DNA from: Chloroflexota bacterium
Lineage (GTDB): Bacteria > Chloroflexota > Limnocylindria > Limnocylindrales > CSP1-4
Direction: 5' to 3'
NCBI GenBank assembly: GCA_003171035.1
Contig: PMXR01000052.1
Coordinates: 1 to 60,723, forward strand
DNA length: 60,723 nt
Each line of letters starts with the position of its first letter. The first letter of the stretch is position 1. Positions 37,460 through 60,723 of the stretch are shown here, in pieces. The notes under the pieces were generated by a model, which was given only the letters and a program-made list of their open reading frames with translations, had not been told where the DNA came from and searched no databases. Position numbers and translations under genes: made by a program.

Positions 37460-37479
37460 GGCCCCTTGCCTCGAGATGC

Positions 37480-39305: not shown

Positions 39306-39529
39306 CAGAGACTCCCGGCAGCGTCTTGAACGATCGACGTGATCATTTCCGGCGCGTCTGCAGCGCTGAATTGCGCAAACGATACACACTGCCAGTGAGG
39401 CAAATGTCGCCTGACGACGGGTAGACCGCCGCCCTACTCGGATGCGTCGACATCTCCGACGGTGGTCGGCGCTCCGGTGGCGACATTGCCGAGTCATCAG
39501 TGATGACGGCGGCGTCTGGCCACCGGCCT

Positions 39530-40462: not shown

Positions 40463-40502
40463 CGAGCGAGTCTAGCAGAGGGCCTCGAGACGCTGGCCAG
40501 AC

Positions 40503-41267
40503 TTATCCAGCAGCGATCGCCAGCACATTCCAAGACTCCGCCGATGGTGGATTCTCGACGTCCGGGAACGCCGCGAGGCTCTGCAGGGTTAGGCCTGCTT
40601 CGGTCAGGAACCCGCCCAGCTCCTCTTCGAAGAAGTAGCGCATTCGATGCGTTTCCGAACTGTGCGCATCCGGCTTGCCGTCCTGACGCCGGGTGAGCTC
40701 GTACTTGACGGAACAGACGTGACCGCCTGGCTCGAGCGTTCCGACCGCCTTGCGCTCTATTTCGCCGTCCTCGACCGGCACGACCTTGACCCGCGCCGAT
40801 GGACCCACGGCGACTACCGCCGGGCCATACCACACGTCGAAGATGAAGACGCCTCCCGGCTCGAGATGCTGCCGGACGTTGCCGAGCGTGGACCGAACAG
40901 CGGCGTCGCTGATCTGATAGCCAACGACGGCGAACATCGACAGCACGGCATCGAACCGCCGCCCGATCTGGACATTCTGCACATCGCCGAGGACGAAGGT
41001 CGTGCCGCTTACGCCCGCGGCGGCAGCCCGTCGACGCGCGCGTTCGAGCATTCCTCCGGACAGGTCGACCCCAACGACCTCGTAGCCTCTGCGAGCGAGT
41101 TCGACTGAGTGGCGGCCCGTTCCACAGCCGAGGTCGAGAACGCTCCGTACCGGGTGGCCGAGGTCCTTGAAGATACCTTCAACCAGGTCGCACTCGGCGC
41201 CGTAGTCCTTGTCCGCGTAGAAAGCGTCGTAGGAGTCGGAGTAGTCGGGACCGAAGACTCCGGTCAT
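40503..41267 (-). CDS. class I SAM-dependent methyltransferase
   Basis: Contains VLDLGCGTGRHSVELARRGYEVVGVDLS (motif I plus the acidic post-I residue). Confidence 0.85.
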   Translation of the reverse strand: MTGVFGPDYSDSYDAFYADKDYGAECDLVEGIFKDLGHPVRSVLDLGCGTGRHSVELARRGYEVVGVDLSGGMLERARRRAAAAGVSGTTFVLGDVQNVQIGRRFDAVLSMFAVVGYQISDAAVRSTLGNVRQHLEPGGVFIFDVWYGPAVVAVGPSARVKVVPVEDGEIERKAVGTLEPGGHVCSVKYELTRRQDGKPDAHSSETHRMRYFFEEELGGFLTEAGLTLQSLAAFPDVENPPSAESWNVLAIAAG

Positions 41268-42394
41268 GCCAGGACCTGCTTCACGGCTGCAATCACTGTC
41301 TCTTGTTGCTCCTCAGTTAGTCCAACGCCGGACGGCAGGTACAGGCCCATGTCCGCCAGCTCTTCGGTTACGGGGTATGACTCGCCATCGAATAGACCGC
41401 GTCTTCGCAAGGCGGGCTGACGGTCCAGGCCCAGGAAGAAGGGGCGCGTTTCGACCCCGAGCGCCGCCAGGCGCTTGGCCAGGGATACCGCGTTATGGCC
41501 GCTTCCCTTTTCGAGCACCAGGCCGTTCATCCACCACACCGATCGCGCCCAGGGCCGCTCAACCTGCATACGGATGCCGGGAATCGAGGTCAGCGCCTCC
41601 AAATAGCGTGCGCCGACCCGGCGCTTCGTTTCGACGGTCTCGCCGATACGCTCGACCTGGGCCTTGCCGATCGCCGCCTGAACGTTCGTCAGCCTGAAGT
41701 TGAAGCCAAGCTCCTCGTGCAGGAACCGCTGACTGGGGATGAACGCCAGGTTGCGCAGCAGGCGCAGCCGCTCGGCGAGTGCGTCGTCATCCGTGACGAC
41801 CATGCCGCCCTCGCCGGTCGTGACCAGCTTGTTGGCGTAGAAGCTGAAGCAGCTGAGGTCGCCGAAACTGCCGCAACGCTGCCACTTCGGGTCCGTGTCG
41901 CGGTTCGACAGGTACTGGGCGCCGTGTGCCTCCGCCGCGTCCTCGATTATCGCCAGCCCATGCTTCTTGGCGAGCTCGAGCAGCGGATCCATGTCGACTG
42001 GGTGGCCGTAGATGTGGACCGGCATGATCGCCTTGGTTCGGGGCGTGATCTTGGCCGCCACCTGAGACACGTCCATGCACCACGTGGCCGGGTCGGCGTC
42101 AACGAGAACCGGCACGGCCCCCTGGTATACGACCGCCATCGCACAAGAGATGATCGTGAACGACGGCATGATGACTTCGTCGCCGGGACCAAGATTGAGC
42201 GCTGCAACTGCCAGTTGCAGGGCCACGGTTCCGTTGCACACGGCCACGCCGTGGCGCCTTCCGCAGTAGGAAGCCCAACTATCTTCGAACTCGGCGATGA
42301 AGTGCCCGGCCGAGGAGATCCAGCCGGTCTGCAGACACTCGGTTACGTACTCGAGTTCATGACCGTCCAGGCGCGGCTCATTGACTGGGATCAC
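41264..42394 (-). CDS. DegT-family aminotransferase, GDP-perosamine synthase-like
   Basis: Contains MIPVNEPRLDGHELEYVTECLQTGWISSAG, NGTVALQLA, GDEVIMPSFT, MPVHIYGHP and FSFYANKLVTTGEGG, which are collinear with Per/RfbE as I recall it. gmd is in the same locus. Confidence 0.75.
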   Translation of the reverse strand: MIPVNEPRLDGHELEYVTECLQTGWISSAGHFIAEFEDSWASYCGRRHGVAVCNGTVALQLAVAALNLGPGDEVIMPSFTIISCAMAVVYQGAVPVLVDADPATWCMDVSQVAAKITPRTKAIMPVHIYGHPVDMDPLLELAKKHGLAIIEDAAEAHGAQYLSNRDTDPKWQRCGSFGDLSCFSFYANKLVTTGEGGMVVTDDDALAERLRLLRNLAFIPSQRFLHEELGFNFRLTNVQAAIGKAQVERIGETVETKRRVGARYLEALTSIPGIRMQVERPWARSVWWMNGLVLEKGSGHNAVSLAKRLAALGVETRPFFLGLDRQPALRRRGLFDGESYPVTEELADMGLYLPSGVGLTEEQQETVIAAVKQVLA

Positions 42395-42864
42395 TGCGGC
42401 CTCGGTGCGCCGGTGGGATCGAACCGCTCCTTTTCGGCGGCGCCGCCGTAGGGACCTTGCTTCACCTCGAACAGCACGGTGTCTTCCAGCATGCGGAATC
42501 CGTGCCCGCCTCCGACTGAGACAACGAGATCACCCGTTGCCAGCTCGCGTGAAGCCACCAGGGCCTGGTTGTCACCGTAGATGTCCACGATGCAGCGGCC
42601 ACTTCTGACGACAAGCAGTTCGGAAGTCCCGACGATGGTTCGAACGACAGGCAGATGGATGTGGGGCACGACCGAGCCGCCGGCCGGATACACCACGAAT
42701 CCCGCCTGGAACGTCGCGTCGTCGCCGGTGAAGAATGAAGTCGTGGCGTCGGTCGCACCGGCTCGAACGATGTAAGCGATGGGCGTTTGACCCTGGCATA
42801 TGGACTCGATCGCGCTCATCGAGCCACGATCCTTGCCTTCAGCGATATCCATGTGCGGCATCAT
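42391..42864 (-). CDS. cupin-fold protein
   Basis: 157 aa, with VVYPAGGSVVPHIHLP...GGGHGF (cupin His motifs). Overlaps both neighbours. Confidence 0.55.
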   Translation of the reverse strand: MMPHMDIAEGKDRGSMSAIESICQGQTPIAYIVRAGATDATTSFFTGDDATFQAGFVVYPAGGSVVPHIHLPVVRTIVGTSELLVVRSGRCIVDIYGDNQALVASRELATGDLVVSVGGGHGFRMLEDTVLFEVKQGPYGGAAEKERFDPTGAPRPQ

Positions 42865-44225
42865 ATCCGCTCAGAGTCGGGAGCCCCGACCGCATCGGTC
42901 GGTCCGGGCGTGACCCCACGAACGCGGCGCCCGGCATCCTGGATGAGCTCGGCGAGCCGAGCGTTGTACTCGGTGCGCCCGTACAGTGCCAGGCGCCTGG
43001 ACCCTGCCTCGACGAGTCCTCTACGCAGCCGGTCGTCCGACCACAGCGAGTGGATTCCATCGGCGATGGCCTGTACTGAGGTGGGATCGACCAGGACTGC
43101 TGCATCGCCGCATTGCTCGCGGATTCCGCGCAGATCCGACGAAAGGACCGGTCGTCCCATGCCCCACGCCTCGAGGATGGGAATGTTGGTAGGCCCGAAG
43201 AAGGTTGGGAGCAGAACTCCGCGTGAGGCTGCGTACAAAGGCGCCATGAGGTCATCCTCGACGTAGCCGAGGATGTGGACGAGGTCCTCGATGCCTTCCG
43301 CGGCGGCCGTTCGGCGAACCTCATCCAGAACGGATGCCCTGATCGGATCGGAGGCGGACCCGCACATCACCACCTCCACGTCGACGGCTCGCTCCGCGCG
43401 AATCTTGGCCAGGGCCTGAACGACTCGCACGTGGTTCTTGTGAGGCCAGAATTGGGCCGGGAAGAAGAGGAATCGCTCGGGCAGATCGAGGCGCTCGCGC
43501 GCGACGGTAGCGCCCGAAGCGCTTGCGGTCGCGTCGAGATATGGGGCCGGAAGGAACGGAAGAACCCGTGTGCGCTCGGACGAGATCACGTCGCCGTAGA
43601 AGTTGAGGACGTCTTCACGCCCGACTTCGGAGTCGACGAGCACGGTCAGGGCATTTTCGATCCCGTTCCGGAACAGGTACTCGCGGGACTCCCATTCCCC
43701 ATTTGCGGACACTTCGGGGAACTCTGGATGGAGACGGTGCTGGAGGTCGTGAACGGCCATCACGTACGGCACGCCCGACTCGAACCCGATCGGCGATGGC
43801 GCCGGGAACACGAGGAAATCGACCCCAAACCTGCGGATCCACTGGCTCGCTGCGCCGGACAATGCCCGGACCTGATAGGTCTGGCTCGTGCCGGTCTGCC
43901 GCGTTGGCAGTGCGGCCCGAAGCCGCGCTGCGACCCGGCCCAGGGGACCGACGGCCGAGAGTCGCTTTGCGGTGGCCCTAAGTCTTCCACGCAGCCTCCA
44001 GCGAGCCGTTCGAGGCCAGAGAGAAGCTATCTGGTACCCCCGCGTCCGCCAGACTTCCGCGCGCGGCAGATATCGATTTTCCGCAAACAGAACCAACTCG
44101 GGCCGTGGCTGTATCTCGAGGAGCCCTTCGAGCATCGTGACGCTGTACTGGTATATGCCGCCGCTGGAGCCATCCAGTACGGGCACCACTCCAATACACA
44201 GCGGCCGATCGGACAGACTGCTCAC
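42861..44225 (-). CDS. glycosyltransferase family 4 (start uncertain)
   Basis: GTG 44225 was chosen so the gene does not overlap fcl; the ORF track starts at 44354. The C-terminal GT4 block is LLPTFFGPTNIPILEAWGMGRPVLSS. Confidence 0.75.
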   Translation of the reverse strand: MSSLSDRPLCIGVVPVLDGSSGGIYQYSVTMLEGLLEIQPRPELVLFAENRYLPRAEVWRTRGYQIASLWPRTARWRLRGRLRATAKRLSAVGPLGRVAARLRAALPTRQTGTSQTYQVRALSGAASQWIRRFGVDFLVFPAPSPIGFESGVPYVMAVHDLQHRLHPEFPEVSANGEWESREYLFRNGIENALTVLVDSEVGREDVLNFYGDVISSERTRVLPFLPAPYLDATASASGATVARERLDLPERFLFFPAQFWPHKNHVRVVQALAKIRAERAVDVEVVMCGSASDPIRASVLDEVRRTAAAEGIEDLVHILGYVEDDLMAPLYAASRGVLLPTFFGPTNIPILEAWGMGRPVLSSDLRGIREQCGDAAVLVDPTSVQAIADGIHSLWSDDRLRRGLVEAGSRRLALYGRTEYNARLAELIQDAGRRVRGVTPGPTDAVGAPDSERI

Positions 44226-44256
44226 GCCTCGATGGGACCCTGTAGTCGCGGCGCGG

Positions 44257-46122
<1,866 letters not shown>

Positions 46123-48006: not shown

Positions 48007-48174
48007 CAGGGGTCACGGGTCCATCTGCGCGGTGCGCTAGTACCTTAGACAGGCTGCCCCACACACACCCACCACGCGTAGCATCGGGTCGCGTCGATTC
48101 AAGGCGCGCTAGCTTCGCCATGGTGAGGGCGGTCGTATATGGCCGCGGGCGAGAGCATCGAAGAGGCAGTCAAG

Positions 48175-50889
48175 ATGAATCTCCCGAAGATCTACCGCCG
48201 TTTCGCCGTCGCAATCATCGGCGTCCTCCTCGTCGGCCTTCTCCCGGCGTCTGCGTTGGCGACTGGGCCGGACACAATCGAAGTCCACATTGTTGGTCCG
48301 ACCATGGCCGGGCAGGCTCTCAGCGTCACGGTGACCGTTCGCGACGCTGAGGACATCCCGGACCCCGATTACTCTGGGACGATTCACTTCACGAGTTCGG
48401 ACCCGACGGCGAACGCAGACCTTACTTTGCCCGCGTTGCCAGGGGATGTGACGATCAGCGACGGCTCGGGCACTGCCGACGCCGGAACCATGACGTTCGA
48501 GAAGGTCGGCTCGCAAACGTTGACCGCCACCGACAGCATCAATGACCTGACCGGCACGTCACTGCCTGTCTCCGTTACCCCCGCCGCCGCGGATCACTTC
48601 GTGGTCAGCGCTCCGCCGACGGCCGTCGTGGGGACTGCCGCCCCGGTAACAGTCACCGCAACCGACTACTACGGCAACATCGACACCAACTACGCCGGCA
48701 CCGTCCACCTCACCAGCACGGGCCCCGGCGCCATTCTCGAAGACAACCATACGTTCACCAGCGGCGACTCGCTGGACAACGGCGTCTACACGTTCCTCAC
48801 GGGCGTCACCTTCGCCCACGTCGGAACCACACAGGTGGTCACTGCTACGGACGCCGACCATGCGCCTGTCACCGGCGCATCCGACGCAGTTACCGTCGGC
48901 CAGGCCACTCCGGACCTCGCGTTCACGAGCACGGCGCCCAGCTCTGCGGTCGTGGGCGACACCTACACCCCGACTGCCGCCTCTACCCCGGGCGATCCGG
49001 GAGAGATCACCGTCGCCCTGCATGCCCCATCGGCCGACTGCACCGAAGCGGGCGGAATAGTCACCTTCACCCATTTCGGCTCCTGCGTAATCGAGGCCGC
49101 CCAGACGGGCAACGATGACTGGGCCGCAGGCGCGGCCAGCCAGACGATCACCGTCGGCAAGGGCACGCCGACCCTGGCATTCGAGAGCACCGCTCCCGCC
49201 GGCGCCGTCGTGGACGGCCCCACGTACACCCCGACCTTCACCAAGACCACAGGCGACACCGGGCCTGTCACCGTCGTCTCCACCACCTCGAGCATCTGCT
49301 CGGTCGACGTCAACAACGCGGTGAGTTTCACCGCCTACGGCTCCTGCATCATCGACGCAACTCAGGCCTCCGACGACAACTGGATCACGTCCAACACCGT
49401 CAGCCAGACGATCCACGTTCTGGCCCACGGCTCAGCCACTCACTTCGTCGTCGCCGGCCCCGCGTCCGCGGCTCCGGAGACGGTTCAGAGCTACACCGTG
49501 ACGGCCACGGATAGCTTGGGACACACGGACGCCGGCTACACAGGAACCGTCAAGTTCACCAGCACCGACGGTGCGGCCACGCTGCCTGCCAACTCGACAC
49601 TCACCTCCGGCAGCAAGACGTTCAGCGTCACGCTTGTGACCGCCGGAACGCAGACCGTCACCGCCACCGACACGGTGCTGTCGTCGATCACTGGAACCTC
49701 AAACGGAGCGACCGTTACACGCGTTCTCAGCGAGTACCACCCGCAGTCCCCGCCCGTCCGGCTTCTCGATAGCCGTACCGGTAACGGTATGCCGCATGGC
49801 GCCGTGGCAAAGCTCAGGGCCGGATCGCCTGTAACCATCCAAATCGGTGGTCGCAATGGGGTCGGGCTCGGCGCCACGGCGGTGACTGTGAACGCTGCGA
49901 TCGTCTACCCGAGCGCGGCCGCATGGCTCTTCCTCGGTCCCAACCCTACGCCCAGCCCCACAACCTTCACCATCGCCTTCAACAAGATGGACATCACGAA
50001 CTACGGTGTGACCGTCGCTCTGAGTTCGACTGGAACCTTGAGCGCCACCTACATGGCCACATCGGGGACGACAGATCTCGTCCTGGACATCACGGGCTGG
50101 TTCGCGCCCGCTACCACCGCCGGCGGAGAGACCTACTTCCCGATTACGCCGTATCGAGCGCTCGACAGCCGGATCGGAAACGGAGTCTCCAAGACGAAGT
50201 TCAAGGCGAACGTCCCACGGTCGTTCCCGATTTGGAACCGAGGTGACGTGCCGACTACCGCCCGGGCGGTCACCGGCAACCTCACGGCAGTCAATGAGAA
50301 CTATCACGGAGCCGTCTTCCTGGGCCCCGGTGGCCCGTCCGGGCCCAGTGCCACTATCAATTTCGTGGCAGGTCAGATTCGAGGCAACAGCATTACCGTT
50401 GCACTCAGCTCCACGGGGTCGTTGACGGCGACGTTCGAGGCGAAGTCCGGCAAGTTGACGGACCTTGTCTTCGACGTGACCGGCTACTACACGACCTCCC
50501 AGTCGGGGTCCAAGTACGTGCCTCTAACCGCCGCTCCCATCCTTGACACCCGAAACGGCACCGGCGGCCTGCCGATTCAAAGGTTCGCGGCCAATGTCCC
50601 TCACACTTTCACCGCTCAGAACCAGGCCGGCGTCCCCATCGGGGCGACGGGCATCACCGCCGTTGTGGCGGTAGTCCATCAGAACGCCTCATTCGCGCTC
50701 GCCGTAGGCCCCGTCGCCTCAGCGCTAACGGCGACATCGTCGCTCAACTTCATCAGTACTGACAATTGCTCAAACGGGGCGACAGTTGCCCTGAGTAACA
50801 CGGGAACGCTGAGCGCTATGTTCATGTCCCACGGGGGCACGACCGACGTTCTGATATACGTGACCGGCTATTTCATCAAGCAGCCATAG
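48175..50889 (+). CDS. secreted repeat protein 1: Ig-like repeats plus 3 C-terminal ~120-aa modules
   Basis: Signal peptide MNLPKIYRRFAVAIIGVLLVGLLPASALA. It has five Ig-like segments followed by three modules. No catalytic domain recognised. Confidence 0.8.
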   Translation: MNLPKIYRRFAVAIIGVLLVGLLPASALATGPDTIEVHIVGPTMAGQALSVTVTVRDAEDIPDPDYSGTIHFTSSDPTANADLTLPALPGDVTISDGSGTADAGTMTFEKVGSQTLTATDSINDLTGTSLPVSVTPAAADHFVVSAPPTAVVGTAAPVTVTATDYYGNIDTNYAGTVHLTSTGPGAILEDNHTFTSGDSLDNGVYTFLTGVTFAHVGTTQVVTATDADHAPVTGASDAVTVGQATPDLAFTSTAPSSAVVGDTYTPTAASTPGDPGEITVALHAPSADCTEAGGIVTFTHFGSCVIEAAQTGNDDWAAGAASQTITVGKGTPTLAFESTAPAGAVVDGPTYTPTFTKTTGDTGPVTVVSTTSSICSVDVNNAVSFTAYGSCIIDATQASDDNWITSNTVSQTIHVLAHGSATHFVVAGPASAAPETVQSYTVTATDSLGHTDAGYTGTVKFTSTDGAATLPANSTLTSGSKTFSVTLVTAGTQTVTATDTVLSSITGTSNGATVTRVLSEYHPQSPPVRLLDSRTGNGMPHGAVAKLRAGSPVTIQIGGRNGVGLGATAVTVNAAIVYPSAAAWLFLGPNPTPSPTTFTIAFNKMDITNYGVTVALSSTGTLSATYMATSGTTDLVLDITGWFAPATTAGGETYFPITPYRALDSRIGNGVSKTKFKANVPRSFPIWNRGDVPTTARAVTGNLTAVNENYHGAVFLGPGGPSGPSATINFVAGQIRGNSITVALSSTGSLTATFEAKSGKLTDLVFDVTGYYTTSQSGSKYVPLTAAPILDTRNGTGGLPIQRFAANVPHTFTAQNQAGVPIGATGITAVVAVVHQNASFALAVGPVASALTATSSLNFISTDNCSNGATVALSNTGTLSAMFMSHGGTTDVLIYVTGYFIKQP
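48262..49734 (+). repeat. protein-level Ig-like repeats arranged A-A-B-B-A
   Basis: The three A units start at about 48262, 48592 and 49435 and share HFVV..P....G....VTVTATD..G..D..Y.GTV.FTS and ..TQ.VTATD. The two B units start at about 48907 and 49165 and share TP.LAF.STAP..AVV...YTPT and a paired Cys with GSC.I.A.Q..DDNW. Confidence 0.7.
49735..50886 (+). repeat. three tandem copies of the ~120-aa module (protein 1)
   Basis: Approximate copies are 49735-50109, 50134-50493 and 50515-50886. Each opens Y-x-P-x-x-x-P-x-x-L-D-[ST]-R and closes [DY]-[IV]-T-G-[YW]-[FY]. Copies 1 and 3 are the most diverged of the twelve. Confidence 0.85.
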
Positions 50890-51059
50890 GCCGCCGCTCG
50901 GCTCATCGCATCGTGCCTTACACGCCAAGATAGACATACGGCACCGTTCCAATGCTAGGATTATCGGCGGGGTCGTGCCCGAACCCGCTGGTAATCAACG
51001 CGATTCGCGCGGAGTTGCCGATCATTGGCCTTTCGGGGCCGTCGATTGCCGTGCATCGG

Positions 51060-53678
51060 ATGAGGACCGTAATGTTCGAATGCTTGCCCCTGCTTCAGCT
51101 GGCCACGCGGTTTGCGGCGGTCGGACGAAGCGCTGACAGACACTTCGCTCGCGGGATGCTGTCGATCGGTCTCGCCATCGCCCTGGCGATCTCCGCGATT
51201 CCTGCTTTGGCCGCCGCCACGGGGCCTGTGGCGTCGGCGGACCAGACACCGGACTCCATTCAGTATCAGGAATACCTGTCTCACGGCACTGAGACTTACT
51301 CATTCACGCCGGGCATCCACGCAGCCGTTTCGTATCGGCCGCGAACCGGGGACACGGAGACCATCGACGGAGCGAAACCCGTTGCGCTCCCGGCGGGCTA
51401 CCCGGCGCAGCCGGCTCCGGTTGCGCCTTCAAGCGCGGCGGCTGAGGGTACTGTGCGGCCGGCAGGGACACTGAATCCACTCCGCCGGGAGGTCTTCGGT
51501 TTCCTGCCCTACTGGGAGCTTTCGAGCACGCTCGACTACGACACTTTGTCGACGATCGCCTACTTCGGCGTCAGCGTCGGGAGCGACGGGAACCTCTATG
51601 AGGCCGGCAACGGCTGGGCCGGGTGGAACAGCTCGACGATGACGACCATCATCAACACCGCCCATGCCCATGGCACTCGCGTCGTGCTCACGGCTCAGGC
51701 CTTCGCGTGGGGCACCAGCGAAGCTGCCTCGCAGACTGCGCTTCTATCCAGCCCGACGGCCAGGCAGAACGCCGCCGCGACCATTGCGGCCACAGTCCGT
51801 AGCAGAGGCGTCGACGGCGTGGACCTGGACTTCGAGCCGATCGCGTCCGGCCAGCGCTCCAACTACGTTCTGTTCGTTCAGCAGCTTCGGATCGAGCTCG
51901 ACAAGCTTCAGCCCGGCTACGAACTGACCTTCTGCGCCACGGGGGCCCCGGGCACCTATGACCTGCCGAATCTCCTGGCGCCCGGCGCCGCGGACGCGGT
52001 CTTCATCATGGGCTACAACCTCAGAGGTGGCGACCCGGCGACGGCGGGATCGATCGACCCTCTGGCCAGCACCTTGACCAGATACACGCTTACCAGTGTG
52101 GTTGGAACGTACCTGGGCCAGGTTCCGGCGTCGAAGGTCATTCTGGGATTGCCGTGGTATGGCGCTGCGTATTCCACCGCCGCGAGCCACAGCCTCAATG
52201 CCGCGGTGGCGTCTGCGGTCACATATGGAAAGCCGGTCGAGTCGTACTACTCAACTCTATCGGGGCTCGCGTCGATGTCGGACAGCACACACCTGGGGAA
52301 GTCATATGACATCGGCGAGCAGACCGCGTGGACAGCGTATTACGGCACCTTCGGCGGACAACCCACATGGCGTGAAGGCTACTTTGATGATGCGCGGGCG
52401 TTGGGTGCCAAGTGCGATGCAATAGACGGTTGGAACCTCCGTGGTGTGGGAATATGGGCGCTGGGCTACGACAACAACAACGGCGATGGAGATCTGACGG
52501 GCGAGATCGCCGCGAAGTTCGAGACCGGTGCCGCTGGCACCACATTCCACCCGCTGGATCCCGTTCGGATTGTCGACACCCGTATTCGGCTGGGCATAGC
52601 TGGGAAGTTGCTTGCGAATGTGCCCCAGACTTTCCTTGTCGCGGGGTTGAACGGCGTAGACGGGACGGCCACGGCGGTTACCGGCAATCTGACCGTCGTC
52701 AACGAAACGAAGTCCGGCGCCCTGTATCTGGGCCCATATGCCACTAGCAGACCATCCACGTCCACGATCAACTTCGCGGCTGGGAGCACCACCGGCAACG
52801 GCGTGACGATTGGGCTGAGTGCGACAGGCAGCTTGAGCGCGGTCTACATGGCCAGCGCCGGCAACACCACTAACCTGGTGTTCGACCTGACAGGGTTCTT
52901 CACGCCAGATACGAAAGGAGCAACGTACCATCCGATGCGTCCCGTGCGAGCTGTCGACACGCGTATTGGATTGGGAACGCACGGCAAACTGGCTGCCAAG
53001 AGCCCCAGGGTATTCCAGGTCAGCACTGAAAACGGAATCCCCAAGGAGGCAGTCGCCGTCACTGCGAACATAGCGGTCGTCAATTCGTCCAGATCGGGCG
53101 CGCTATACCTTGGGCCAACCTCTCTCGCAGCTCCGCTGGCGTCGACTATCAACTTCAGTCGGTCTCAGATCGTCGCCAACAACGCGACCGTTCCTTTGAG
53201 CCCAACCGGATCGTTGAGTGCGACGTATCTCGCGCCCCAGGGAAACACCACCGACTTCGTACTAGACATCACGGGCTATTACACGCTCGATGCCAGCGGC
53301 GTCAGGTTCGTGCCGATTACGCCAGCCCGCTATGTGGACACGAGGTCGGGGCTCGGCGGCAGTGGCGGCAAACTCCGGGCGAATACTCCTAGGTCATTCG
53401 TGATCGACGGCCTCGGCAGCGTGCCCATGACTGCGACTGCGATAACTGGAAATGTGGCTGTGGTGAACGAGACCAGGTCCGGCGCGATGTTCGTAGGGCC
53501 TGATTCCATGGCGAAGCCTTCCACGTCTACTCTCAACTTCGTTCGTGGGGACATACGAGCCAACGGCATTACGGTGATGGTCGGCGGCAGTCCCGGTAGT
53601 TTGAGCGCGACGTATATGGCCGCGAGCGGGAATACGATGGATCTTGTCCTCGACATAACCGGCTACTTTGTGCCGTAG
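51060..53678 (+). CDS. secreted GH18 glycoside hydrolase plus 3 C-terminal ~120-aa modules (start uncertain 51060-51156)
   Basis: Hydrophobic leader MLSIGLAIALAISAIPALAAA. The GH18 domain spans about 51485-52500 with a perfect DxxDxDxE (DGVDLDFE; Glu codon at 51834-51836). Three modules follow. Confidence 0.8.
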   Translation: MRTVMFECLPLLQLATRFAAVGRSADRHFARGMLSIGLAIALAISAIPALAAATGPVASADQTPDSIQYQEYLSHGTETYSFTPGIHAAVSYRPRTGDTETIDGAKPVALPAGYPAQPAPVAPSSAAAEGTVRPAGTLNPLRREVFGFLPYWELSSTLDYDTLSTIAYFGVSVGSDGNLYEAGNGWAGWNSSTMTTIINTAHAHGTRVVLTAQAFAWGTSEAASQTALLSSPTARQNAAATIAATVRSRGVDGVDLDFEPIASGQRSNYVLFVQQLRIELDKLQPGYELTFCATGAPGTYDLPNLLAPGAADAVFIMGYNLRGGDPATAGSIDPLASTLTRYTLTSVVGTYLGQVPASKVILGLPWYGAAYSTAASHSLNAAVASAVTYGKPVESYYSTLSGLASMSDSTHLGKSYDIGEQTAWTAYYGTFGGQPTWREGYFDDARALGAKCDAIDGWNLRGVGIWALGYDNNNGDGDLTGEIAAKFETGAAGTTFHPLDPVRIVDTRIRLGIAGKLLANVPQTFLVAGLNGVDGTATAVTGNLTVVNETKSGALYLGPYATSRPSTSTINFAAGSTTGNGVTIGLSATGSLSAVYMASAGNTTNLVFDLTGFFTPDTKGATYHPMRPVRAVDTRIGLGTHGKLAAKSPRVFQVSTENGIPKEAVAVTANIAVVNSSRSGALYLGPTSLAAPLASTINFSRSQIVANNATVPLSPTGSLSATYLAPQGNTTDFVLDITGYYTLDASGVRFVPITPARYVDTRSGLGGSGGKLRANTPRSFVIDGLGSVPMTATAITGNVAVVNETRSGAMFVGPDSMAKPSTSTLNFVRGDIRANGITVMVGGSPGSLSATYMAASGNTMDLVLDITGYFVP
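52545..53675 (+). repeat. three tandem copies of the ~120-aa module (protein 2)
   Basis: Approximate copies are 52545-52907, 52926-53285 and 53307-53675, joined by linkers of about 6-7 aa. Confidence 0.9.
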
Positions 53679-53682
53679 CGAG

Positions 53683-55743
53683 ATGCCTACGATGAATGCC
53701 GCATTGTCCAGGTTCCGTCGCATGGCGGCAGTGGGACTGCTGGCAACGGCGGTCTGGCTGCCGACGGTGGTGGTTCCCGAGGTAGCCGCAGGCACGGCAT
53801 GCACGAGCTGGTCGAGCTCCACGACCCCACCGCCCACGATCCGCGTTCTTCGAACTGGTACCGGGCTCGTCGAGACGGTCGATTTCAGGGTCTACACCAA
53901 GATCGTGATGGCCGCGGAGTTCAACAAGACCTGGCCCTTCGAAACACTCCGGGCAGGTGCCGTCGCGGTCAAGGAGTACGCCTGGTATTACGTGCTACAT
54001 CCTCGAGGCGGCAGCAAGAACGGCTCGTGCTACGACGTCCAGGACAACTCCTCCGATCAGGATTACTGGCCGGAGACCAGGTACCCCTCCACGTCCGAGA
54101 TAAACGCCGTCGACACCACGTGGGGAGAGTCGGTTCTGAGGGGCGGCGCGGTCTTCCTCGCCGGGTACAGGTCGGGGACGAGCCTGGTGTGTGGCGGTGA
54201 CAGGGACGGTTACCACCTGTGGCAGCTGAGCGCTCGCGAATGCGGTCTCGAGGGCAAGTCGGCCGAGACGATCCTGCACATCTACTTCGACCCGGTGGCG
54301 ATTCAAGGCGGTCCGGTGGTCCCCGGCGCCCCGACCGCCGTTTCGGCGACCGGCTTTGACACTTCGGCTCTGGTGACCTGGTCGGTCCCGGCATCCAGCG
54401 GCGGCACGTCGATCACGGGATACACCGCGACATCAGATCCCGACGGCAAGACCTGCTCGACCACCGGGACCCAGTACTGCGAAGTCGCCGGTCTGATGAA
54501 CCTGACCTCATATACATTCACGGTTCGGGCAACGAACAACATCGGCACCGGGCCGTCTTCCGACCCCTCCAATGCCGTGACTCCGGCGGTGGTACATGGG
54601 TCCACCTTCGCTGCGATCAAGCCGGTGCGATTGCTCGACACTCGCGTGGGCAACGGCCTCGGCGGCAAGTTCCTCGCCAACACCCCGCGAACCTTCCAGG
54701 TAAGCAAGCGGGACGTGATTCCGGCCGGGGCCACGGCCGTCACGGGGAACCTCACCGTAGTCGGTGAATCGGGCCCGTCGGCCATCTATCTCGGGCCGGA
54801 TCCAATCGCCTACCCCTCGACTTCAACCATCAACTTCAAGCAGGGAGACGTCATCGGCAATGGTGTGATGGTCGCCCTGAGTTCGAATGGCGAGTTGAGC
54901 GCCACATACCTGGCGGCGTCAGGTCAGACGACGGATCTTGTCTTCGATGCGACGGGGTACTTCACGGCGGCAGCCAGCGGCGACAGATACCACCCGCTCG
55001 ATCCCGCTCGGCTGGTCGATAGCCGGCTCGGCCTCGGTCTCGGCGGCAAGGTCAGGGCCAATACACCCGCCACATTCACCGTCTGGAATCATGCGGGCGT
55101 CCCGATCGGGGCCACCGCGGTCACCGGTAATGTGACTGTCGTCAATGCCACGCACTCCGGCGCGGTCTTCGTCGGCCCGGATCCGATCGCGAAGCCGACC
55201 ACTTCGACGATCAACTTCAAGCAGGGTCAGGTCATTGGCAACAACGTCACCGTTGCCCTAAGCACCAAAGGCCAACTCAACGTTACATTCATGTCGGCGT
55301 CGGGAAACACCACGGATCTGGTCTTCGATATCACCGGCTACTACACGGCCGACGGCACGGGAGACACCTACGTGCCAATCCAGCCGATCCGCCTGCTGGA
55401 TACGCGTTTCAAGAACGGCCTGTCCGGCAAGTTTTCATCCAACACGCCCGGAACATTCCAGGTAAGTGGCCGGGGGTGCGTTCCGGCGACTGCCACAGCA
55501 GTGAGCGGCAACGTAGCCGTGGTCAACCAAACGAGATCATACGCAGTCTTCGTCGGTCCGAAACCCACAGCCAGCCCTTCGACATCGACCCTCAACTTCC
55601 CTAGCGGCATCGTCAGGGCAAACGGTCTGGCGGTGGCACTCAGTACCACCGGAACTCTCAGCGCGACGTACATGTCCGCGGCCGGACAGACCACGGACCT
55701 GGTCTTCGACGTCACCGGCTACTTCCAACCATCGCCGAAATGA
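53683..55743 (+). CDS. secreted SpoIID/LytB-like domain + fibronectin type III + 3 C-terminal ~120-aa modules
   Basis: Signal-like N-terminus. The SpoIID-like blocks are YTKIVMAAEF...ETLRAGAVAVKEYAWYY, CYDVQDNSSDQDY and AVDTTWGESVL (about 53830-54300). The FN3 domain spans about 54320-54590 (PGAPTAVSATGFDTSALVTWSVP...YTFTVRATNNIGTGPSS). Confidence 0.8.
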   Translation: MPTMNAALSRFRRMAAVGLLATAVWLPTVVVPEVAAGTACTSWSSSTTPPPTIRVLRTGTGLVETVDFRVYTKIVMAAEFNKTWPFETLRAGAVAVKEYAWYYVLHPRGGSKNGSCYDVQDNSSDQDYWPETRYPSTSEINAVDTTWGESVLRGGAVFLAGYRSGTSLVCGGDRDGYHLWQLSARECGLEGKSAETILHIYFDPVAIQGGPVVPGAPTAVSATGFDTSALVTWSVPASSGGTSITGYTATSDPDGKTCSTTGTQYCEVAGLMNLTSYTFTVRATNNIGTGPSSDPSNAVTPAVVHGSTFAAIKPVRLLDTRVGNGLGGKFLANTPRTFQVSKRDVIPAGATAVTGNLTVVGESGPSAIYLGPDPIAYPSTSTINFKQGDVIGNGVMVALSSNGELSATYLAASGQTTDLVFDATGYFTAAASGDRYHPLDPARLVDSRLGLGLGGKVRANTPATFTVWNHAGVPIGATAVTGNVTVVNATHSGAVFVGPDPIAKPTTSTINFKQGQVIGNNVTVALSTKGQLNVTFMSASGNTTDLVFDITGYYTADGTGDTYVPIQPIRLLDTRFKNGLSGKFSSNTPGTFQVSGRGCVPATATAVSGNVAVVNQTRSYAVFVGPKPTASPSTSTLNFPSGIVRANGLAVALSTTGTLSATYMSAAGQTTDLVFDVTGYFQPSPK
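54607..55731 (+). repeat. three tandem copies of the ~120-aa module (protein 3)
   Basis: Approximate copies are 54607-54966, 54988-55347 and 55369-55731. These copies fit the consensus best. Confidence 0.9.
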
Positions 55744-55819: not shown

Positions 55820-56010
55820 AAACGCCACTCGCTCGATGTACCAAACCACATCGCAGTCCACCCAAACGGGCCACCCCGTCCCCGGACCAACGCGCGACTG
55901 CCCGCTGCCATTCCAACGTGACAAGGTGGTTGACCTGACCAGTGGCATCGTCCCAGTCGGACGTTCGCAGCGCGCTGACTGGCTTGCGGTCTGAATTGGA
56001 GATCATCCCA

Positions 56011-57996
56011 ATGCGCAAACTCGCGATCGCGATCGTGATCGGCTTGCTGGCCTCGGTCGGTGCAACGGTCGCCTCCGCCCCGAAGGCTGCCGCAGGCTCT
56101 TCGCCGCAGCTCAAGGTCGTTCTAGTGGTGGGAGCAGTGGAAGGCGCGACGGCGTCATACATCGCCGATGCCGATGCGGCGGCCGCCGAGTTTGCTCACT
56201 ACACCAGCAACATCGTCAAGGTCTACTCGCCCAATGCGACCTGGGCCGCCGTGCAGACGGCCGCGCAAGGGGCAAGCGTGCTGGTCTATCTGGGCCACGG
56301 CAACGGCTATCCGAATCCGTACAACTCCAAGCTTTACACGGACAGAGACAACGGCATGGGCCTCAATGCCACGGCCAACGCCGGCAACTCGAACAAGAAG
56401 TACTACGGCGAGCTGTACATGGCCCAGCTTCAGCTGGCCCCGAACGCCGTGGTTCTCCTCAACCACTTGTGCTACGCGTCCGGCAACAGCGAGTCCGGCC
56501 AGGGCCTGCCCTCTCTTTCGACGGCTGAGACTCGCGTGGATGGCTTCGGCGCCGGCTTCCTTCGCGGCAACGCCAGGGCAGTGATCGCGGAAGGCTTGGG
56601 CAATCTGAATTGGTACATCGACCACCTTTTCACACCGGGCCTGACGATCGACCAAATCTGGAAGACCTACCCCAACTTCCACAACCACGTCACGACCTGG
56701 TCTAGCACTCGGAATGCGGGATACACGTCCGAGATCGACCCCGACGTCAGCCACCCACAGAGCGACGGCGACATCTACTACAGATCCATGGTGGCCCAGC
56801 CCGGCCTCACGACCGACGCCATCGGTGTCGGCGTCACCTACCAGCCAACCACCTACACGGCAATCGACCCGGTGCGTCTACTCGACTCTCGCACGGGCAA
56901 CGGCTTCGGGGGCAAGCTAGCTGCCAACAGTCCCAGGGGCTTCCAGGTGGCGGGCCGCGGCGTAATTCCCGCCGGCGCCACTGCGGTCACCGGCAACGTC
57001 GCGGTTACGGGTCAGACGAGATCGGGAGCGATCTACGTAGGTCCGGCCTGGCTCACCTACCCGACGACCTCCACGGTCAACTTCCCGGCCGGCGCGGTGG
57101 TCGACAACGGAGTGACGGTAGCGCTAAGTCCGACGGGATATCTCTACGCCACCTACATGGCAGCCTCCGGCAACAAGACCGATCTCGTGTTCGACGCGAC
57201 CGGCTACTTCATGCCCGATCAACTCGGCTCGACATATCACGCCGTCGACCCGGCCCGCCTGGTCGACACGCGGAAAGGCGTCGGCGGGATCGGCGGCCTC
57301 GTCTACGCCAATAGGCCAGTCACCTTCGATGTCTGGCTCCACGGCAACGTTCCGCTCGGGGCCACAGCGATTACCGGCAACGCGACCGTGGTCGGCGCAA
57401 CCGGCTCATGCGCGTTCTTCCTCGGACCCAAGCCGCTCACCAGCCCGACGACGTCGACAGTCAACTTCAAAGCCGGCCAGACCGTTGGCAACAACCTGAC
57501 GGTAGCCCTGAGCGACACGGGAACTCTCAGCGCCACGTACATTGCCAAGGCCGGAAACCACGCCGCCCTCGTCTTCGACGTGACCGGTTACTACACCCAC
57601 GATCTCACGGGTGCGCGATACGTGCCGATCACGCCGGTCCGTTTGCTGGATACGAGGGCCGGGAACGGACACGCCGGCAAGCTCTCGGCCAATTCGGCAT
57701 TGCCCTTCCAGATCACCGGCCGCGGCGATGTGCCCGACGGATCAGCGGCAGTCAGTGCCAATGCCACCGTGGTGAATGAGACTACTCACGGGGCGATCTT
57801 CATCGGCCCGGTCGCGAACAACGCGCCACTTACTTCGACGCTCAATTTCGCCTCGGGCGAAATCCGGGGCAACGGCCTGACCGTGCTGCTGGGTGACGGC
57901 GGGATCCTCACCGCCACCTACATGGCCGCGTCCGGCAACAAGACCGATCTGGTAGTCGACGTCACCGGCTATTTCGCACCGATCCCGGCGCCCTAG
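56011..57996 (+). CDS. secreted protein: about 280-aa N-terminal domain with candidate His/Cys dyad plus 3 C-terminal ~120-aa modules
   Basis: ATG 56011 lies 10 nt after GGAG. The signal peptide is MRKLAIAIVIGLLASVGATVASA. The head has beta-strand/HG and beta-strand/C blocks (VLVYLGHGNG, VVLLNHLCYASG). Confidence 0.8.
   Translation: MRKLAIAIVIGLLASVGATVASAPKAAAGSSPQLKVVLVVGAVEGATASYIADADAAAAEFAHYTSNIVKVYSPNATWAAVQTAAQGASVLVYLGHGNGYPNPYNSKLYTDRDNGMGLNATANAGNSNKKYYGELYMAQLQLAPNAVVLLNHLCYASGNSESGQGLPSLSTAETRVDGFGAGFLRGNARAVIAEGLGNLNWYIDHLFTPGLTIDQIWKTYPNFHNHVTTWSSTRNAGYTSEIDPDVSHPQSDGDIYYRSMVAQPGLTTDAIGVGVTYQPTTYTAIDPVRLLDSRTGNGFGGKLAANSPRGFQVAGRGVIPAGATAVTGNVAVTGQTRSGAIYVGPAWLTYPTTSTVNFPAGAVVDNGVTVALSPTGYLYATYMAASGNKTDLVFDATGYFMPDQLGSTYHAVDPARLVDTRKGVGGIGGLVYANRPVTFDVWLHGNVPLGATAITGNATVVGATGSCAFFLGPKPLTSPTTSTVNFKAGQTVGNNLTVALSDTGTLSATYIAKAGNHAALVFDVTGYYTHDLTGARYVPITPVRLLDTRAGNGHAGKLSANSALPFQITGRGDVPDGSAAVSANATVVNETTHGAIFIGPVANNAPLTSTLNFASGEIRGNGLTVLLGDGGILTATYMAASGNKTDLVVDVTGYFAPIPAP
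56854..57981 (+). repeat. three tandem copies of the ~120-aa module (protein 4)
   Basis: Approximate copies are 56854-57216, 57235-57597 and 57619-57981. Confidence 0.9.
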
Positions 57997-58011: not shown

Positions 58012-58773
58012 CTAGGAAGCCGGAACCGTCCGCCGCAGGAAGCCGCTGTGGCAGTACGTGGTCGTCATGCGCTCGTAGCTGCTGTCGACCTCGAAGTCCG
58101 GATGAGTCTTGAGGAAGTCGCGAACTGCTTCGAGCGGATTGTCGAGGTCCCAGGTCGGCTTGCCGTTCGGGGCGTCGGCGACCAGCGGCATCACCTCGTC
58201 GAAGACGACTATGTAACCGCCGGGGCCGATCAGGGGAGCGTATAGCTCCAGCTCGGCCCGGACGTGGTCGCGGGTGTGGTTGGAGTCGAGCATGACCATC
58301 ACGCTCTCGCCCGGCTGGATCCGGCTGCGGATCGAAGCCATCGTCGACGCTTCGGTCGAGCTGCCCTCGATCAGCGTGATCCGGCGGCTGGCCGGGTGAC
58401 TCTCGATGGCGAGCCGGTTGTACTTGCGAATCTCGATGTCCACGCCGATCACGCGGCCTCGACCCATCAGGTCGCACAGGGAGGCGTAGAGGATCAAAGC
58501 TCCGCCGTGGGCGACCCCGCTCTCCACGATGACGTCCGGGCGGTTCTTCCAGACCAGTTCCTGAACCATCAGGATGTCTTCGGGGAGCTGGATGATCGGA
58601 ATCCCGAGCCAGGTGACTTCGTAGGACAGCTTCCGCTGCCAGTTCGAACGAGTCCAGAGGTTGGCTACGACGGCGAATCCCTCCGGCGAGTAGATGTCTA
58701 CCTCGCGCTCGCCATCGGCGGTCTGGACCTTGATGAGTCTGTCCGGCTGTCGTTCCGGTGTGGATTCTGTCAC
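58012..58773 (-). CDS. CmcI-family (cephalosporin hydroxylase-like) methyltransferase, sugar O-methyltransferase-like
   Basis: GTG 58773 overlaps the upstream stop (GTGA). Contains WLGIPIIQLPEDILMVQELVWKNRPDVIVESGVAHGGALILYA. Confidence 0.75.
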   Translation of the reverse strand: MTESTPERQPDRLIKVQTADGEREVDIYSPEGFAVVANLWTRSNWQRKLSYEVTWLGIPIIQLPEDILMVQELVWKNRPDVIVESGVAHGGALILYASLCDLMGRGRVIGVDIEIRKYNRLAIESHPASRRITLIEGSSTEASTMASIRSRIQPGESVMVMLDSNHTRDHVRAELELYAPLIGPGGYIVVFDEVMPLVADAPNGKPTWDLDNPLEAVRDFLKTHPDFEVDSSYERMTTTYCHSGFLRRTVPAS

Positions 58774-59663
58774 TGGCCAATCCTCTCGCGTGTCGACCAC
58801 CAGTCGGTGGTTTGTTGGATTCCTTGCTGCAGATCGTACTTTTGCTTCCAGCCAGTGCTCAGCAGCGGTGCAGGATTGCCGGTGGCCGGCCATCCGCTGG
58901 ACTCGGAGTCCGGCAGTGAACTGGTCCCGAGCAGGTCCGGCCTTCCGGTGGCGCGACCTATTTCATCGAAGACGTCCCGCAGTTTTACCGGGCTGCCGGT
59001 GCAAATGTCGACCCGACCCGTCAGCGGGCTCTCGGCAACCTTGCACACGGCCTCGGCAACGTCCTCGACGTGAAGGTAGTCGCGGGACTGCGATCCGCTC
59101 GTCAACTCGATCCGCTCGCCTTGAAGCAGCGAGCGGATCACCAGCGGGACGACACGTCCCGGATCCTCCCAAGGTCCGTACAGGTAGTGGATGTGGGCGC
59201 AGGCGACGGTGATGGACCGTTCGGCGAGACCACCGGCCAGCTGGTGCTGGGCGGCTTTGGCCGCGGCGTAGATCGTCGGCCGGGAGGTGTTGAGGTTCTC
59301 GAGGCATGTTCCGGCCAGGATGAGCCGGCGGCACGTACCGCCGTCGGCGAGAGCCCCCATGAGATTCATACCGGCCCGCAGCGACGCCAGATTCTCCGGC
59401 ACGGCTCGGAGGTAGAAGGCCGGCTCCGCATACCAGGCCAGGTGGATGGCAGCGTCGGGCCCAATCGAGCGGATCGTGTCGTAAGCCCAAGTCTGGTCCG
59501 CGAGGTCGCCCTCGTGAATCTCCAGACCCGACTCGATTCCGGCAAGGCGGACGCGTGAAGCTCCCGGCAGGGTAATCCCGCGGACTTCCACGCCCCGCTC
59601 GACCAGGGCTCGGGCCACGGAGGCGCCGATGAATCCAGTCGCTCCGGTCAGCAGGATTCGCAT
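58770..59663 (-). CDS. NAD-dependent sugar epimerase/ketoreductase (extended SDR)
   Basis: ATG 59663 overlaps the upstream stop (ATGA). Contains MRILLTGATGFIGASVARAL and YAAAK (YxxxK). Confidence 0.8.
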   Translation of the reverse strand: MRILLTGATGFIGASVARALVERGVEVRGITLPGASRVRLAGIESGLEIHEGDLADQTWAYDTIRSIGPDAAIHLAWYAEPAFYLRAVPENLASLRAGMNLMGALADGGTCRRLILAGTCLENLNTSRPTIYAAAKAAQHQLAGGLAERSITVACAHIHYLYGPWEDPGRVVPLVIRSLLQGERIELTSGSQSRDYLHVEDVAEAVCKVAESPLTGRVDICTGSPVKLRDVFDEIGRATGRPDLLGTSSLPDSESSGWPATGNPAPLLSTGWKQKYDLQQGIQQTTDWWSTRERIGQ

Positions 59664-60112
59664 CAGTGCTGCCGGATCTCCCAGTCGTACGGGATGTCGT
59701 TGTCGAACGGATCGAGGCGGATGGAGCGGCTCGGATCGTGCGGGTGAGTGCAGCAATTGGCCACTATGGCCGTTTCGCTGCCCATGCCCTTGAAGCCGTT
59801 CCATACGCCGGGTGGGATCTGCACCAGGCTGTGGTTGTCCGGTCCGAGGAAGACCTCCATGACCTCGCCTCTGGTGGGCGAGCCCTCGCGATCATCGAAC
59901 AGGACGAGCTTGATCCGGCCGTGGATGCAGGCGTAGTTGAGGGTCATCTCGGCATGCTTGTGCCAGCCTTTGACGACGCCCGGGTAGATCGTCGAGAAGT
60001 AGATCTCACCGAACTCGGTGAAATGCGGATCGGTTCTCTTGAGCATGTGCAGTACCGTTCCACGCTCATCGGGGATCCGCTTGAGGGGGACTACGAGCAC
60101 GCCGTCGATCAT
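59663..60112 (-). CDS. dTDP-4-dehydrorhamnose 3,5-epimerase-like cupin
   Basis: The start is ATG 60112, with GTG 60118 as an alternative. Contains IPDERGTVLHMLK, GWHKH and PPGVWNGF. Size is about 149 aa. Confidence 0.8.
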   Translation of the reverse strand: MIDGVLVVPLKRIPDERGTVLHMLKRTDPHFTEFGEIYFSTIYPGVVKGWHKHAEMTLNYACIHGRIKLVLFDDREGSPTRGEVMEVFLGPDNHSLVQIPPGVWNGFKGMGSETAIVANCCTHPHDPSRSIRLDPFDNDIPYDWEIRQH

Positions 60113-60114
60113 CG

Positions 60115-60723
60115 TCACACCAACGTCAGCTTTGGACCTGGAATTATGAACTTGCCGCCCAGGCGCCGGTACTCTGCCTGTTGAGCCAGAATCTCTTCGG
60201 CGAAGTTCCAGGCGAGCAGAAGGCATTCGTCGGGTCGGCGGGCCACGAGCTGGTCCGGATCGACGATGGGTATATGCACGCCCGGCATCAGGAAGCCTTG
60301 CTTATGCGGGCTCCGATCGGCCACGAATGAGATCGTGTCGGTGCCGATCCCGAAGGCGTTGAGCAGAACCGCGCCTTTGGCCGCTGCCCCGTACGCGGCG
60401 ATTTGATGGCCTTGTGCCACGAGGGCGGCCATCATCGCCCGCAGTTCCCGTCCTAACTCCTCCACTCGGCCGGCGAAGGCGGCGTAGTACTCGGAGCCGC
60501 ACAGGCCGACGGCCGCTTCTTCGGCGAAGAGCGAGCGGACCGCCGCGCCCTGCTCGCCCGCTCCGGTGCGCATGGCGAAGACACGCAGAGATCCGCCGTG
60601 GACGGGGATCGCCTCCACATCGACCACAGTCAGCCCGTTGCGCTCGAAGACCCTCGAAAGAGCCGTGAGCGAGTGGTAGAAGAGATGCTCGTGGTAGATC
60701 GTGTCGAACTCGAGCCGCTCCAC
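60115..60723 (-). CDS. NDP-hexose C-methyltransferase (TylCIII-type), C-terminal part only; 5' end beyond window
   Basis: Contains FDTIYHEHLFYHSL, HGGSLRVF, AYGAAAKGAVLLN, ADRSPHKQG and LLAWNFAEEI. The frame is open to the window edge. Confidence 0.85.
   Translation of the reverse strand: MERLEFDTIYHEHLFYHSLTALSRVFERNGLTVVDVEAIPVHGGSLRVFAMRTGAGEQGAAVRSLFAEEAAVGLCGSEYYAAFAGRVEELGRELRAMMAALVAQGHQIAAYGAAAKGAVLLNAFGIGTDTISFVADRSPHKQGFLMPGVHIPIVDPDQLVARRPDECLLLAWNFAEEILAQQAEYRRLGGKFIIPGPKLTLV

Follow-up and report, generated by a model that had tools for sequence, protein, structure and literature searches.

What is the domain of about 120 amino acids (aa) that occurs twelve times, in four groups of three, on one contig of a Chloroflexota bacterium (Limnocylindria; contig PMXR01000052.1 of assembly GCA_003171035.1), and what might it do for the secreted proteins that carry it? 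We followed this domain, hereafter the module, across the whole contig of 60,723 nucleotides (the window) and among its relatives. Modelling and residue covariation point to three modules packing into one closed ring of jelly-rolls, and such a ring may well serve to hold secreted proteins on the cell's own envelope.

Twelve modules end four consecutive genes

A profile made from the 12 copies and run against the six-frame translation of all 60.7 kb detects exactly 12 modules, with E-values of 6e-47 to 8e-61 against their own profile, and nothing that scores elsewhere. They lie as three tandem copies at the end of each of four consecutive plus-strand genes, A to D (48139–57996).

Gene A: 48139..50889, plus strand, 916 aa; signal peptide, acidic immunoglobulin (Ig)-like repeat passenger, three modules
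Gene B: 50952..53678, plus strand, 908 aa as open reading frame (ORF); GH18 (aa 262–507), three modules
Gene C: 53668..55743, plus strand, 691 aa; signal peptide, SpoIID (aa 63–154), fn3 (aa 221–302), three modules
Gene D: 55942..57996, plus strand, 684 aa; signal peptide, passenger of ~295 aa, three modules

Module A1: 49720..50103, plus strand, aa 528–655; divergent, with Tyr for Asn92 and Ala for Asn83
Module A2: 50104..50490, plus strand, aa 656–784
Module A3: 50491..50874, plus strand, aa 785–912; divergent, with Val for Asn55 and Pro for Arg15 (partners of the A1 changes)
Module B1: 52518..52901, plus strand, aa 523–650
Module B2: 52902..53282, plus strand, aa 651–777
Module B3: 53283..53669, plus strand, aa 778–906
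Module C1: 54580..54963, plus strand, aa 305–432
Module C2: 54964..55344, plus strand, aa 433–559; modelled singly as a nine-strand jelly-roll, predicted local distance difference test (pLDDT) score 97
Module C3: 55345..55725, plus strand, aa 560–686; 5 residues from the protein end
Module D1: 56827..57210, plus strand, aa 296–423
Module D2: 57211..57594, plus strand, aa 424–551
Module D3: 57595..57975, plus strand, aa 552–678

The original prediction, made from the sequence of the window, described 12 copies of equal length joined by short linkers, which agrees with the module period of 127–129 aa found here (a core of 119–123 aa plus a junction of 6–8 aa). The seven motif blocks that it listed serve well as a consensus and fail as strict patterns, the literal regular expressions each matching between 1 and 7 of the 12 copies. 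Pairwise identity among the window modules is 36–61%, A1 and A3 being the most divergent. Positions 54607–55731, singled out in that prediction, are the gene C triplet from its first conserved aromatic residue to two residues past the last G-Y-F.

Each of the proteins A–D starts with a Sec-type signal peptide, as read from the sequence, and the same reading found no C-terminal sorting motif or sortase signal and no membrane helix in any of the four. Their passengers are mutually unrelated. The SpoIID domain of gene C was matched in Pfam at an E-value of 8e-10 and the GH18 domain of gene B at 2.5e-26; the true start of gene B probably lies further downstream than the ORF start, before the signal peptide. 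Neither the passenger of gene A nor that of gene D (aa 1–295, 55942–56826) gave a match in Pfam or in a search of PDB sequences.

A large domain family without a curated model

The module belongs to a large domain family for which no curated model exists. The window proteins, 54 homologues and the relatives in Streptomyces and Curtobacterium were scanned against Pfam-A 2025, NCBIfam 2026 and PHROGs v4 without a match to the module at permissive thresholds; a match to an already characterised family, which the original prediction named as a refutation, did not turn up. The module had been placed outside the SLH, CWB2, LysM, SH3b, PG_binding, choline-binding, GW and LGFP families, rightly so: none of these was matched at E<=1 in Pfam or NCBIfam, including by hmmscan of the four proteins against Pfam-A. 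In the actinobacterial relatives, E<=0.1 likewise brought no match to LysM, SH3b, PG_binding, choline-binding, GW or LGFP, and SLH was absent also from the Pfam scan of the 54 homologues. The Pfam models for C1q and TNF found nothing in the four proteins. PDB sequences searched with the module profile gave chance matches only (E about 0.8), and a literature search on the module sequence motifs led only to unrelated BMP peptides. A few sub-threshold profile matches to the module (Crystallin, LPD23, bluetail) were considered and set aside as spurious.

An exhaustive profile search of 1.84 billion representatives of 50%-identity clusters retrieved 27,634 proteins when the cutoff was E<=1e-3 and 5,256 when it was E<=1e-30. 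The closest relatives (45–67% identity) come from metagenome-assembled genomes (MAGs) of Limnocylindria/Limnocylindrales from fen, peat and soil, with at least 17 loci from one MAG within the 80 loci retained. Cultured Streptomyces, Arthrobacter and Curtobacterium carry triplets at 31–36% identity on their plasmids, and many chromosomal Streptomyces proteins annotated solely as 'hypothetical' or 'PKD domain-containing' have one too. The original prediction had pointed to similar repeats in actinobacterial and Chloroflexi surface proteins and amidases, and soundly, as relatives turned up in both groups, including SpoIID-type 'amidase-like' enzymes. A model for this family of 27,634 representatives would annotate thousands of 'hypothetical' secreted proteins, those of cultured Streptomyces included.

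An IMG/VR contig (L079 3108–5825) encodes a 905-aa protein with a probable parallel beta-helix and three very divergent modules, in which a Cys stands at 'P-C-R'. This protein hints that the family has a remote branch beyond Chloroflexota and Actinomycetota.

Three modules are inherited as one unit

Copy number in the homologues is not arbitrary. Among the best 150 representatives, three modules were counted in 139, six in 7 and nine in one, with two, four and five in one each; the four-copy entry consists of three modules and a weak fourth. As proteins with 4, 5, 7 or 8 good copies would outrank those with three, the dominance of multiples of three is no artefact of ranking at copy numbers of at least three. 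The claim that the module comes 'always in threes' therefore describes the bulk of the family, sixes and nines included, and is too strict as a rule: there are genuine single-copy proteins (L017, with a gene D-type passenger; L009, with RCC1 repeats; L053, with GH18; and one phage protein), one protein with four full copies (P0272) and one with two.

Across 76 genome loci we counted 78 intact tandem triplets, and most ORFs with one or two copies at these loci derive from triplets broken by frameshifts in MAGs assembled from long reads. Such broken genes, which are what indel errors in long-read assemblies would produce, account for the many database proteins of ~200 aa with '1.5 copies' (P0003, P0011, P0015). 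Proteins of this kind, met as fragments of up to about 220 aa in a first search with a 122-aa query, were rejected as a form of their own, being really truncated or frameshifted calls. On the Microflora Danica MAG contigs L005, L040, L028, L029 and L045, module genes are split into overlapping ORFs in different frames.

The triplet usually closes the protein. The C-terminal tail measures 10 aa or less in 131 of the 150 homologues, and the protein ends 1–2 residues past the last G-Y-F in 155 of 221 (70%). In P0121, P0122, P0158 and P0164, six or nine modules stand in separate blocks of three, with gaps that sometimes reach several hundred residues, which agrees with two or three self-contained rings in each protein.

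The nearest relative of a module in another protein shares its position (1, 2 or 3) in 79% of cases, and some residues are specific to position (in modules 1, 2 and 3, respectively, column 8 is His, His and Val and the last residue Phe, Tyr and Phe). Together these features indicate that the triplet is inherited as a cassette. Judged by such comparisons, the triplet is the unit of inheritance, with the exceptions given above.

Predicted fold of the module

An AlphaFold2 model of the gene C triplet, based on 131 aligned sequences, is all-beta with nine strands per module (mean pLDDT 97.0, predicted template modelling score (pTM) 0.93). A pTM of 0.93 over 387 residues requires a fixed arrangement of the modules relative to each other and so speaks against beads on a string. 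The module modelled alone reached a pLDDT of 97 and a pTM of 0.89. Spacing across the junction is no less constrained than the domains themselves: in 391 of 442 junctions (88%), G-Y-F and the D-[ST]-R that follows it stand exactly 18 residues apart.

The best PDB match of a single module is the Bd2133 fibre tip of Bdellovibrio bacteriovorus (8OND, 8OK3), with a template modelling (TM) score of 0.54–0.59 and an E-value of 2e-5; at a root-mean-square deviation of 5.3–7.0 Å and 14–18% identity, the two are similar folds and not established homologues. Both are beta-sandwiches of ~120 aa, and the Bd2133 domain forms a trimeric adhesive tip, although as a homotrimer of three chains at a fibre end, and one that the sequence search missed. 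Further PDB neighbours are Ena spore-appendage subunits, the BclA C-terminal domain, the C1q head, the BC2L-C N-terminal lectin and a trimeric phage cement protein; CBM35, CBM4 and a porphyran-binding carbohydrate-binding module (CBM), lectins and viral capsids also appear among the fold neighbours. BclA, C1q and BC2L-C belong to the TNF/C1q-like jelly-rolls, obligate trimers, some with sugar bound where protomers meet. Their jelly-roll sandwich resembles that of the modelled module, at a TM score of only 0.35–0.48 (0.37–0.45 for the Xyn30D CBM35 and the CelK CBM4) and with no sequence signal in either group. On the model, the module is a jelly-roll of a type that mostly functions as a trimer. 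For the whole triplet, Foldseek searches of PDB and BFVD gave single-domain matches of low TM score, none above 0.26, so that its arrangement is without a solved counterpart there.

Covariation supports a closed ring

If three modules in one chain pack as a trimer does, module 3 should meet module 1. Covariation was analysed in 414 unique triplets (effective number 292). In global mean-field direct coupling analysis (DCA), the 1→2 and 2→3 maps correlated at r=0.09, and the top-K enrichment had z of 2–3, with no directional preference beyond K=20. The strongest inter-module coupling joins Asn55 of module n (the N of T-G-N) to Asn92 of module n+1 (the N of A-N-G), both nearly invariant, at 2.39 for 1→2, 2.59 for 2→3 and 2.54 for 3→1. 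The global enrichment was replaced by a targeted test of joint loss at near-invariant residues, with the following odds ratios.

Asn55 of module 1 with Asn92 of module 2: 550
Asn55 of module 2 with Asn92 of module 3: 331
Asn55 of module 3 with Asn92 of module 1: 198
Non-cyclic pairings in the same sequences: 4–57

The p-values of this test are inflated by sequence relatedness, and the internal control is the comparison of cyclic with non-cyclic pairings within the same sequences. The 3→1 pair was lost jointly 50 times, in no fewer than 8 clusters when the sequences are grouped at 60% identity. Arg15 of module n and Asn83 of module n+1 show a like cyclic joint loss. Protein A of the window displays both pairs, its module A3 having changed Asn55 to Val and Arg15 to Pro, and A1 having changed Asn92 to Tyr and Asn83 to Ala.

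Cyclic joint loss that includes 3→1 means that module 3 touches module 1 as each module touches the next, which makes a closed pseudo-threefold ring. By model and covariation, the triplet is such a ring, rigid and not beads on a string. That the three copies might form one packed unit had been suggested in the original prediction, and the pTM, the fixed junction length and the contact of module 3 with module 1 bear this out; the independent beads named there as the opposite outcome did not appear in the triplet model.

Likeness to known triple-repeat anchors

The organisation recalls two families of triple-repeat wall anchor known from Bacillus and Clostridium, SLH and CWB2. SLH motifs are alpha-helical and bind pyruvylated secondary cell wall polymer (SCWP), and the CWB2 fold is alpha/beta, unlike a jelly-roll. 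Both require three motifs, with a pseudo-trimer proposed or shown, and both have the polymer locus beside the surface-protein genes (PMC4973711). Three tandem copies, a pseudo-trimeric unit and a place at the terminus of many unrelated secreted proteins per genome are common to the module and SLH (PF00395), which holds non-covalently to a peptidoglycan-linked secondary polymer and has its genes near polymer biosynthesis (PMC4973711). The census, the predicted packing and the cyclic covariation thus give the triplet the three-copy pseudo-trimer of SLH, an analogy of organisation only: the SLH motif has ~55 aa whereas the all-beta module has ~125, there is no sequence match and the taxa differ. 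No pyruvyl transferase was noticed, and none was searched for.

CWB2 (PF04122, Clostridioides difficile) has a motif of ~100 aa of which all three copies are required, many paralogues and diverse passengers. The locus of its ligand polymer (PSII) lies directly beside the cwp genes (PMC4973711), a layout like that of the window. CWB2 is unlike the module in belonging to Firmicutes, in giving no sequence match and in having a demonstrated ligand, where that of the module is a proposal.

A proposed role at the cell envelope

We know of no general surface-protein anchor defined for Chloroflexota, whose cell envelope is unusual and debated. These bacteria count as monoderm, and their envelopes are described as layers of polysaccharide or protein (PMC13319060). 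We think it rather probable that the triplet is a rigid jelly-roll pseudo-trimer that holds secreted proteins on their own envelope non-covalently, via a glycopolymer attached to peptidoglycan. Three jelly-roll modules of ~120 aa, joined by fixed, tight hairpin junctions, would make one rigid unit of ~380 aa, with module n packing on n+1 and module 3 back on 1 into a single-chain pseudo-trimer, like homotrimeric adhesin or lectin tips. Placed at the C-terminus, this unit would retain Sec-secreted proteins with unrelated passengers (SpoIID, GH18, proteases, propellers, Ig-like arrays). Its ligand would be a peptidoglycan-attached glycopolymer, the probable product of the flanking 6-deoxyhexose/aminosugar cluster. 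As in TNF-like lectins, which bind sugar between protomers, the candidate binding sites are the three inter-module clefts, to each of which one module would contribute its conserved Arg15, Asp18 and Arg20 and the next its Asn83 and Asn92. Single-copy and phage proteins would reach the same unit by trimerising. The evidence for retention at the surface is circumstantial but coherent, a glycan as ligand and the place where it would bind are inferred, and we consider this the most likely reading.

Several lines of evidence favour retention on the envelope. First, the passengers are diverse. In 54 representatives we found fn3 (12), CarboxypepD_reg (5), PQQ/BamB propellers (4), GH18 (3) and SdrD_B (3), besides subtilase (S8), SpoIID, CAP, beta-helix and Kelch domains, the pattern expected of a generic targeting module and not of a CBM that goes with a single class of enzyme. 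SpoIID works on the cell's own peptidoglycan.

Second, genes A–D lie inside an island of glycan biosynthesis, with glycan genes on both sides.

Upstream glycan island, lower G+C: 29326..45459, minus strand; polytopic membrane protein, DegT, methyltransferases, epimerases/dehydratases, GT2, WbqC, cytidylyltransferase, GT1
Downstream flank: 58012..60723, minus strand; rhamnosyl O-methyltransferase (RMNT_CmcI), NAD epimerase, dTDP-sugar 3,5-epimerase-like protein, sugar C-methyltransferase

The last three downstream genes are 71–95% identical to neighbours of the gene C orthologue P0320 (L084, a 297-kb metagenome contig). The P0320 neighbourhood also holds a nucleotidyltransferase, a GT2, an initiating transferase (Bac_transf) and a LytR-CpsA-Psr (LCP) ligase, a family that joins wall polymers to peptidoglycan. 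A glycan cluster of the P0320 type is common to 5 of the 76 loci, in different MAGs.

Third, a 281-aa protein is encoded immediately behind tail genes (phrog_1887) on two near-identical viral contigs of IMG/VR. Its N-terminus is weakly NlpC/P60-like, with a G-F-D-C motif, and its C-terminus is one module. The protein is L078 4533–5378, and the same protein occurs in L077, L082 and L083. Such a layout is that of an endolysin whose C-terminus binds the wall, and the protein is probably an endolysin. The ORF that follows it has a hydrophobic C-terminal segment at its end.

Further support comes from the short C-terminal tails, from the 17 or more loci of one MAG, from the organisation that parallels SLH and CWB2, and from the charge of the window proteins, whose triplets are basic, with isoelectric points (pI) of 8.0–9.6, and whose passengers are acidic, at 4.1–5.8.

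Several observations weigh against this reading. Glycan genes are nearby at only 12 of the 76 related loci, which makes one conserved locus and no rule. The viral protein is only weakly assigned as a lysin (Pfam E 0.002, below the cutoff; RipB in PDB, E 0.036). It was found in only two near-identical viral contigs, a second viral scan giving the same two, and a search of 50,697 deposited phage genomes did not find it. On the Curtobacterium plasmid pW21 (L081 2476–5685, WP_146248389.1), the triplet is N-terminal and a cutinase C-terminal, beside conjugation genes. The GH18, cutinase and beta-helix passengers would equally fit a CBM that targets substrates. The basic charge of the window triplets is not universal: 27% of homologue triplets are acidic (pI<6), which makes a common anionic ligand unlikely. 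Lastly, the global DCA enrichment is underpowered, and the ring geometry rests on pTM and covariation.

A fuller version of the anchor model can be put forward tentatively. In it, the module would be a third independent anchor after SLH and CWB2, its clefts would bind a 6-deoxyhexose/aminosugar polymer attached by LCP ligases, the triplet would be the general anchor of Limnocylindria and serve also in Actinomycetota, Streptomyces among them, and phages would have taken over a single copy, which trimerises, as the wall-binding domain of an endolysin.

The alternative that survives best is that the triplet is a substrate-targeting CBM or lectin, which aims enzymes and adhesins at external polysaccharides or at other cells. 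This would suit the CBM35, CBM4, porphyran-binding and lectin neighbours of the fold, the fibre tip for prey recognition that is the nearest structural match, the varying charge of the homologue triplets, and passengers such as GH18, cutinase, beta-helix and protease. We nevertheless think it unlikely. CBMs normally follow one class of glycoside hydrolase, whereas most passengers here (fn3, propellers, SpoIID, CAP, S8) are not glycosidases, and SpoIID has its target in the cell's own wall. Dozens of paralogues per genome sharing one module resemble a generic anchor, the lysin-like phage fusion points to the host wall, and linkage to the LCP/dTDP-sugar cluster is conserved.

An assembly or scaffold domain that contacts protein and no glycan, building an S-layer-like lattice or docking on a protein layer of the envelope, seems to us quite improbable. 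Its appeal lies in the Ena fibres, viral capsids and phage cement protein, fold neighbours that self-assemble, in conserved polar pairs at the inter-module interfaces that could be purely structural, and in the multilayered envelopes of Chloroflexota (PMC13319060). One module on very many passengers, low-abundance enzymes among them, is however atypical of a lattice former, and the phage fusion and the synteny with glycan clusters would be left unexplained. A secretion or sorting domain, which the export machinery would recognise and perhaps cleave off much as it does the C-terminal tags of some secretion systems, would account for the extreme C-terminal position and the many cargo types, but is very hard to credit given that ~380 aa far exceed known sorting tags, that Sec-type signal peptides are already present, that Curtobacterium has the triplet at the N-terminus and six- and nine-copy proteins have it internally, and that the lysin-like phage protein also bears a module.

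Should the triplet indeed hold proteins on the envelope, three unrelated folds (SLH, CWB2 and jelly-roll) would have converged on a three-repeat pseudo-trimer design, and there would be a handle for surface display, for identification of wall polymers and for predicting the hosts of module-bearing phages. Triple-repeat wall anchors are already known; the unrelated jelly-roll fold is, on the best-supported view, what is new. The cultured Streptomyces carriers make the anchor idea directly testable.

Glycan island and passengers of the window

Three matches to DegT-family aminotransferases, one of them partial, lie in the upstream island. Between 32001 and 38000 the G+C content falls to 0.59–0.60, against 0.65–0.69 elsewhere, over glycan genes that include the WbqC gene and a cytidylyltransferase of the CMP-sugar type. 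A stretch of low G+C is typical of variable islands for surface polysaccharides. At 29326–31560 (minus strand), where AT skew peaks at 0.23, a 744-aa membrane protein has a dozen or more hydrophobic segments and a C-terminal soluble domain. It drew no Pfam match at 1e-5 and may be a GT-C-type glycosyltransferase or a polymerase.

The passenger of gene A (48139–49719) is very acidic, with a pI of 4.1 and a net charge of -39, and a recurring 'Y-[SAT]-G-T-[IV]-[HK]-[FL]-T-S-[ST]' segment in it suggests several Ig-like repeats. That of gene D contains the His/Cys pattern 'YLGHGNG ... LLNHLCYASG', which we take to resemble clan CD (caspase/gingipain-like) cysteine peptidases; an orthologous passenger bears a single module in L017 (422–1723).

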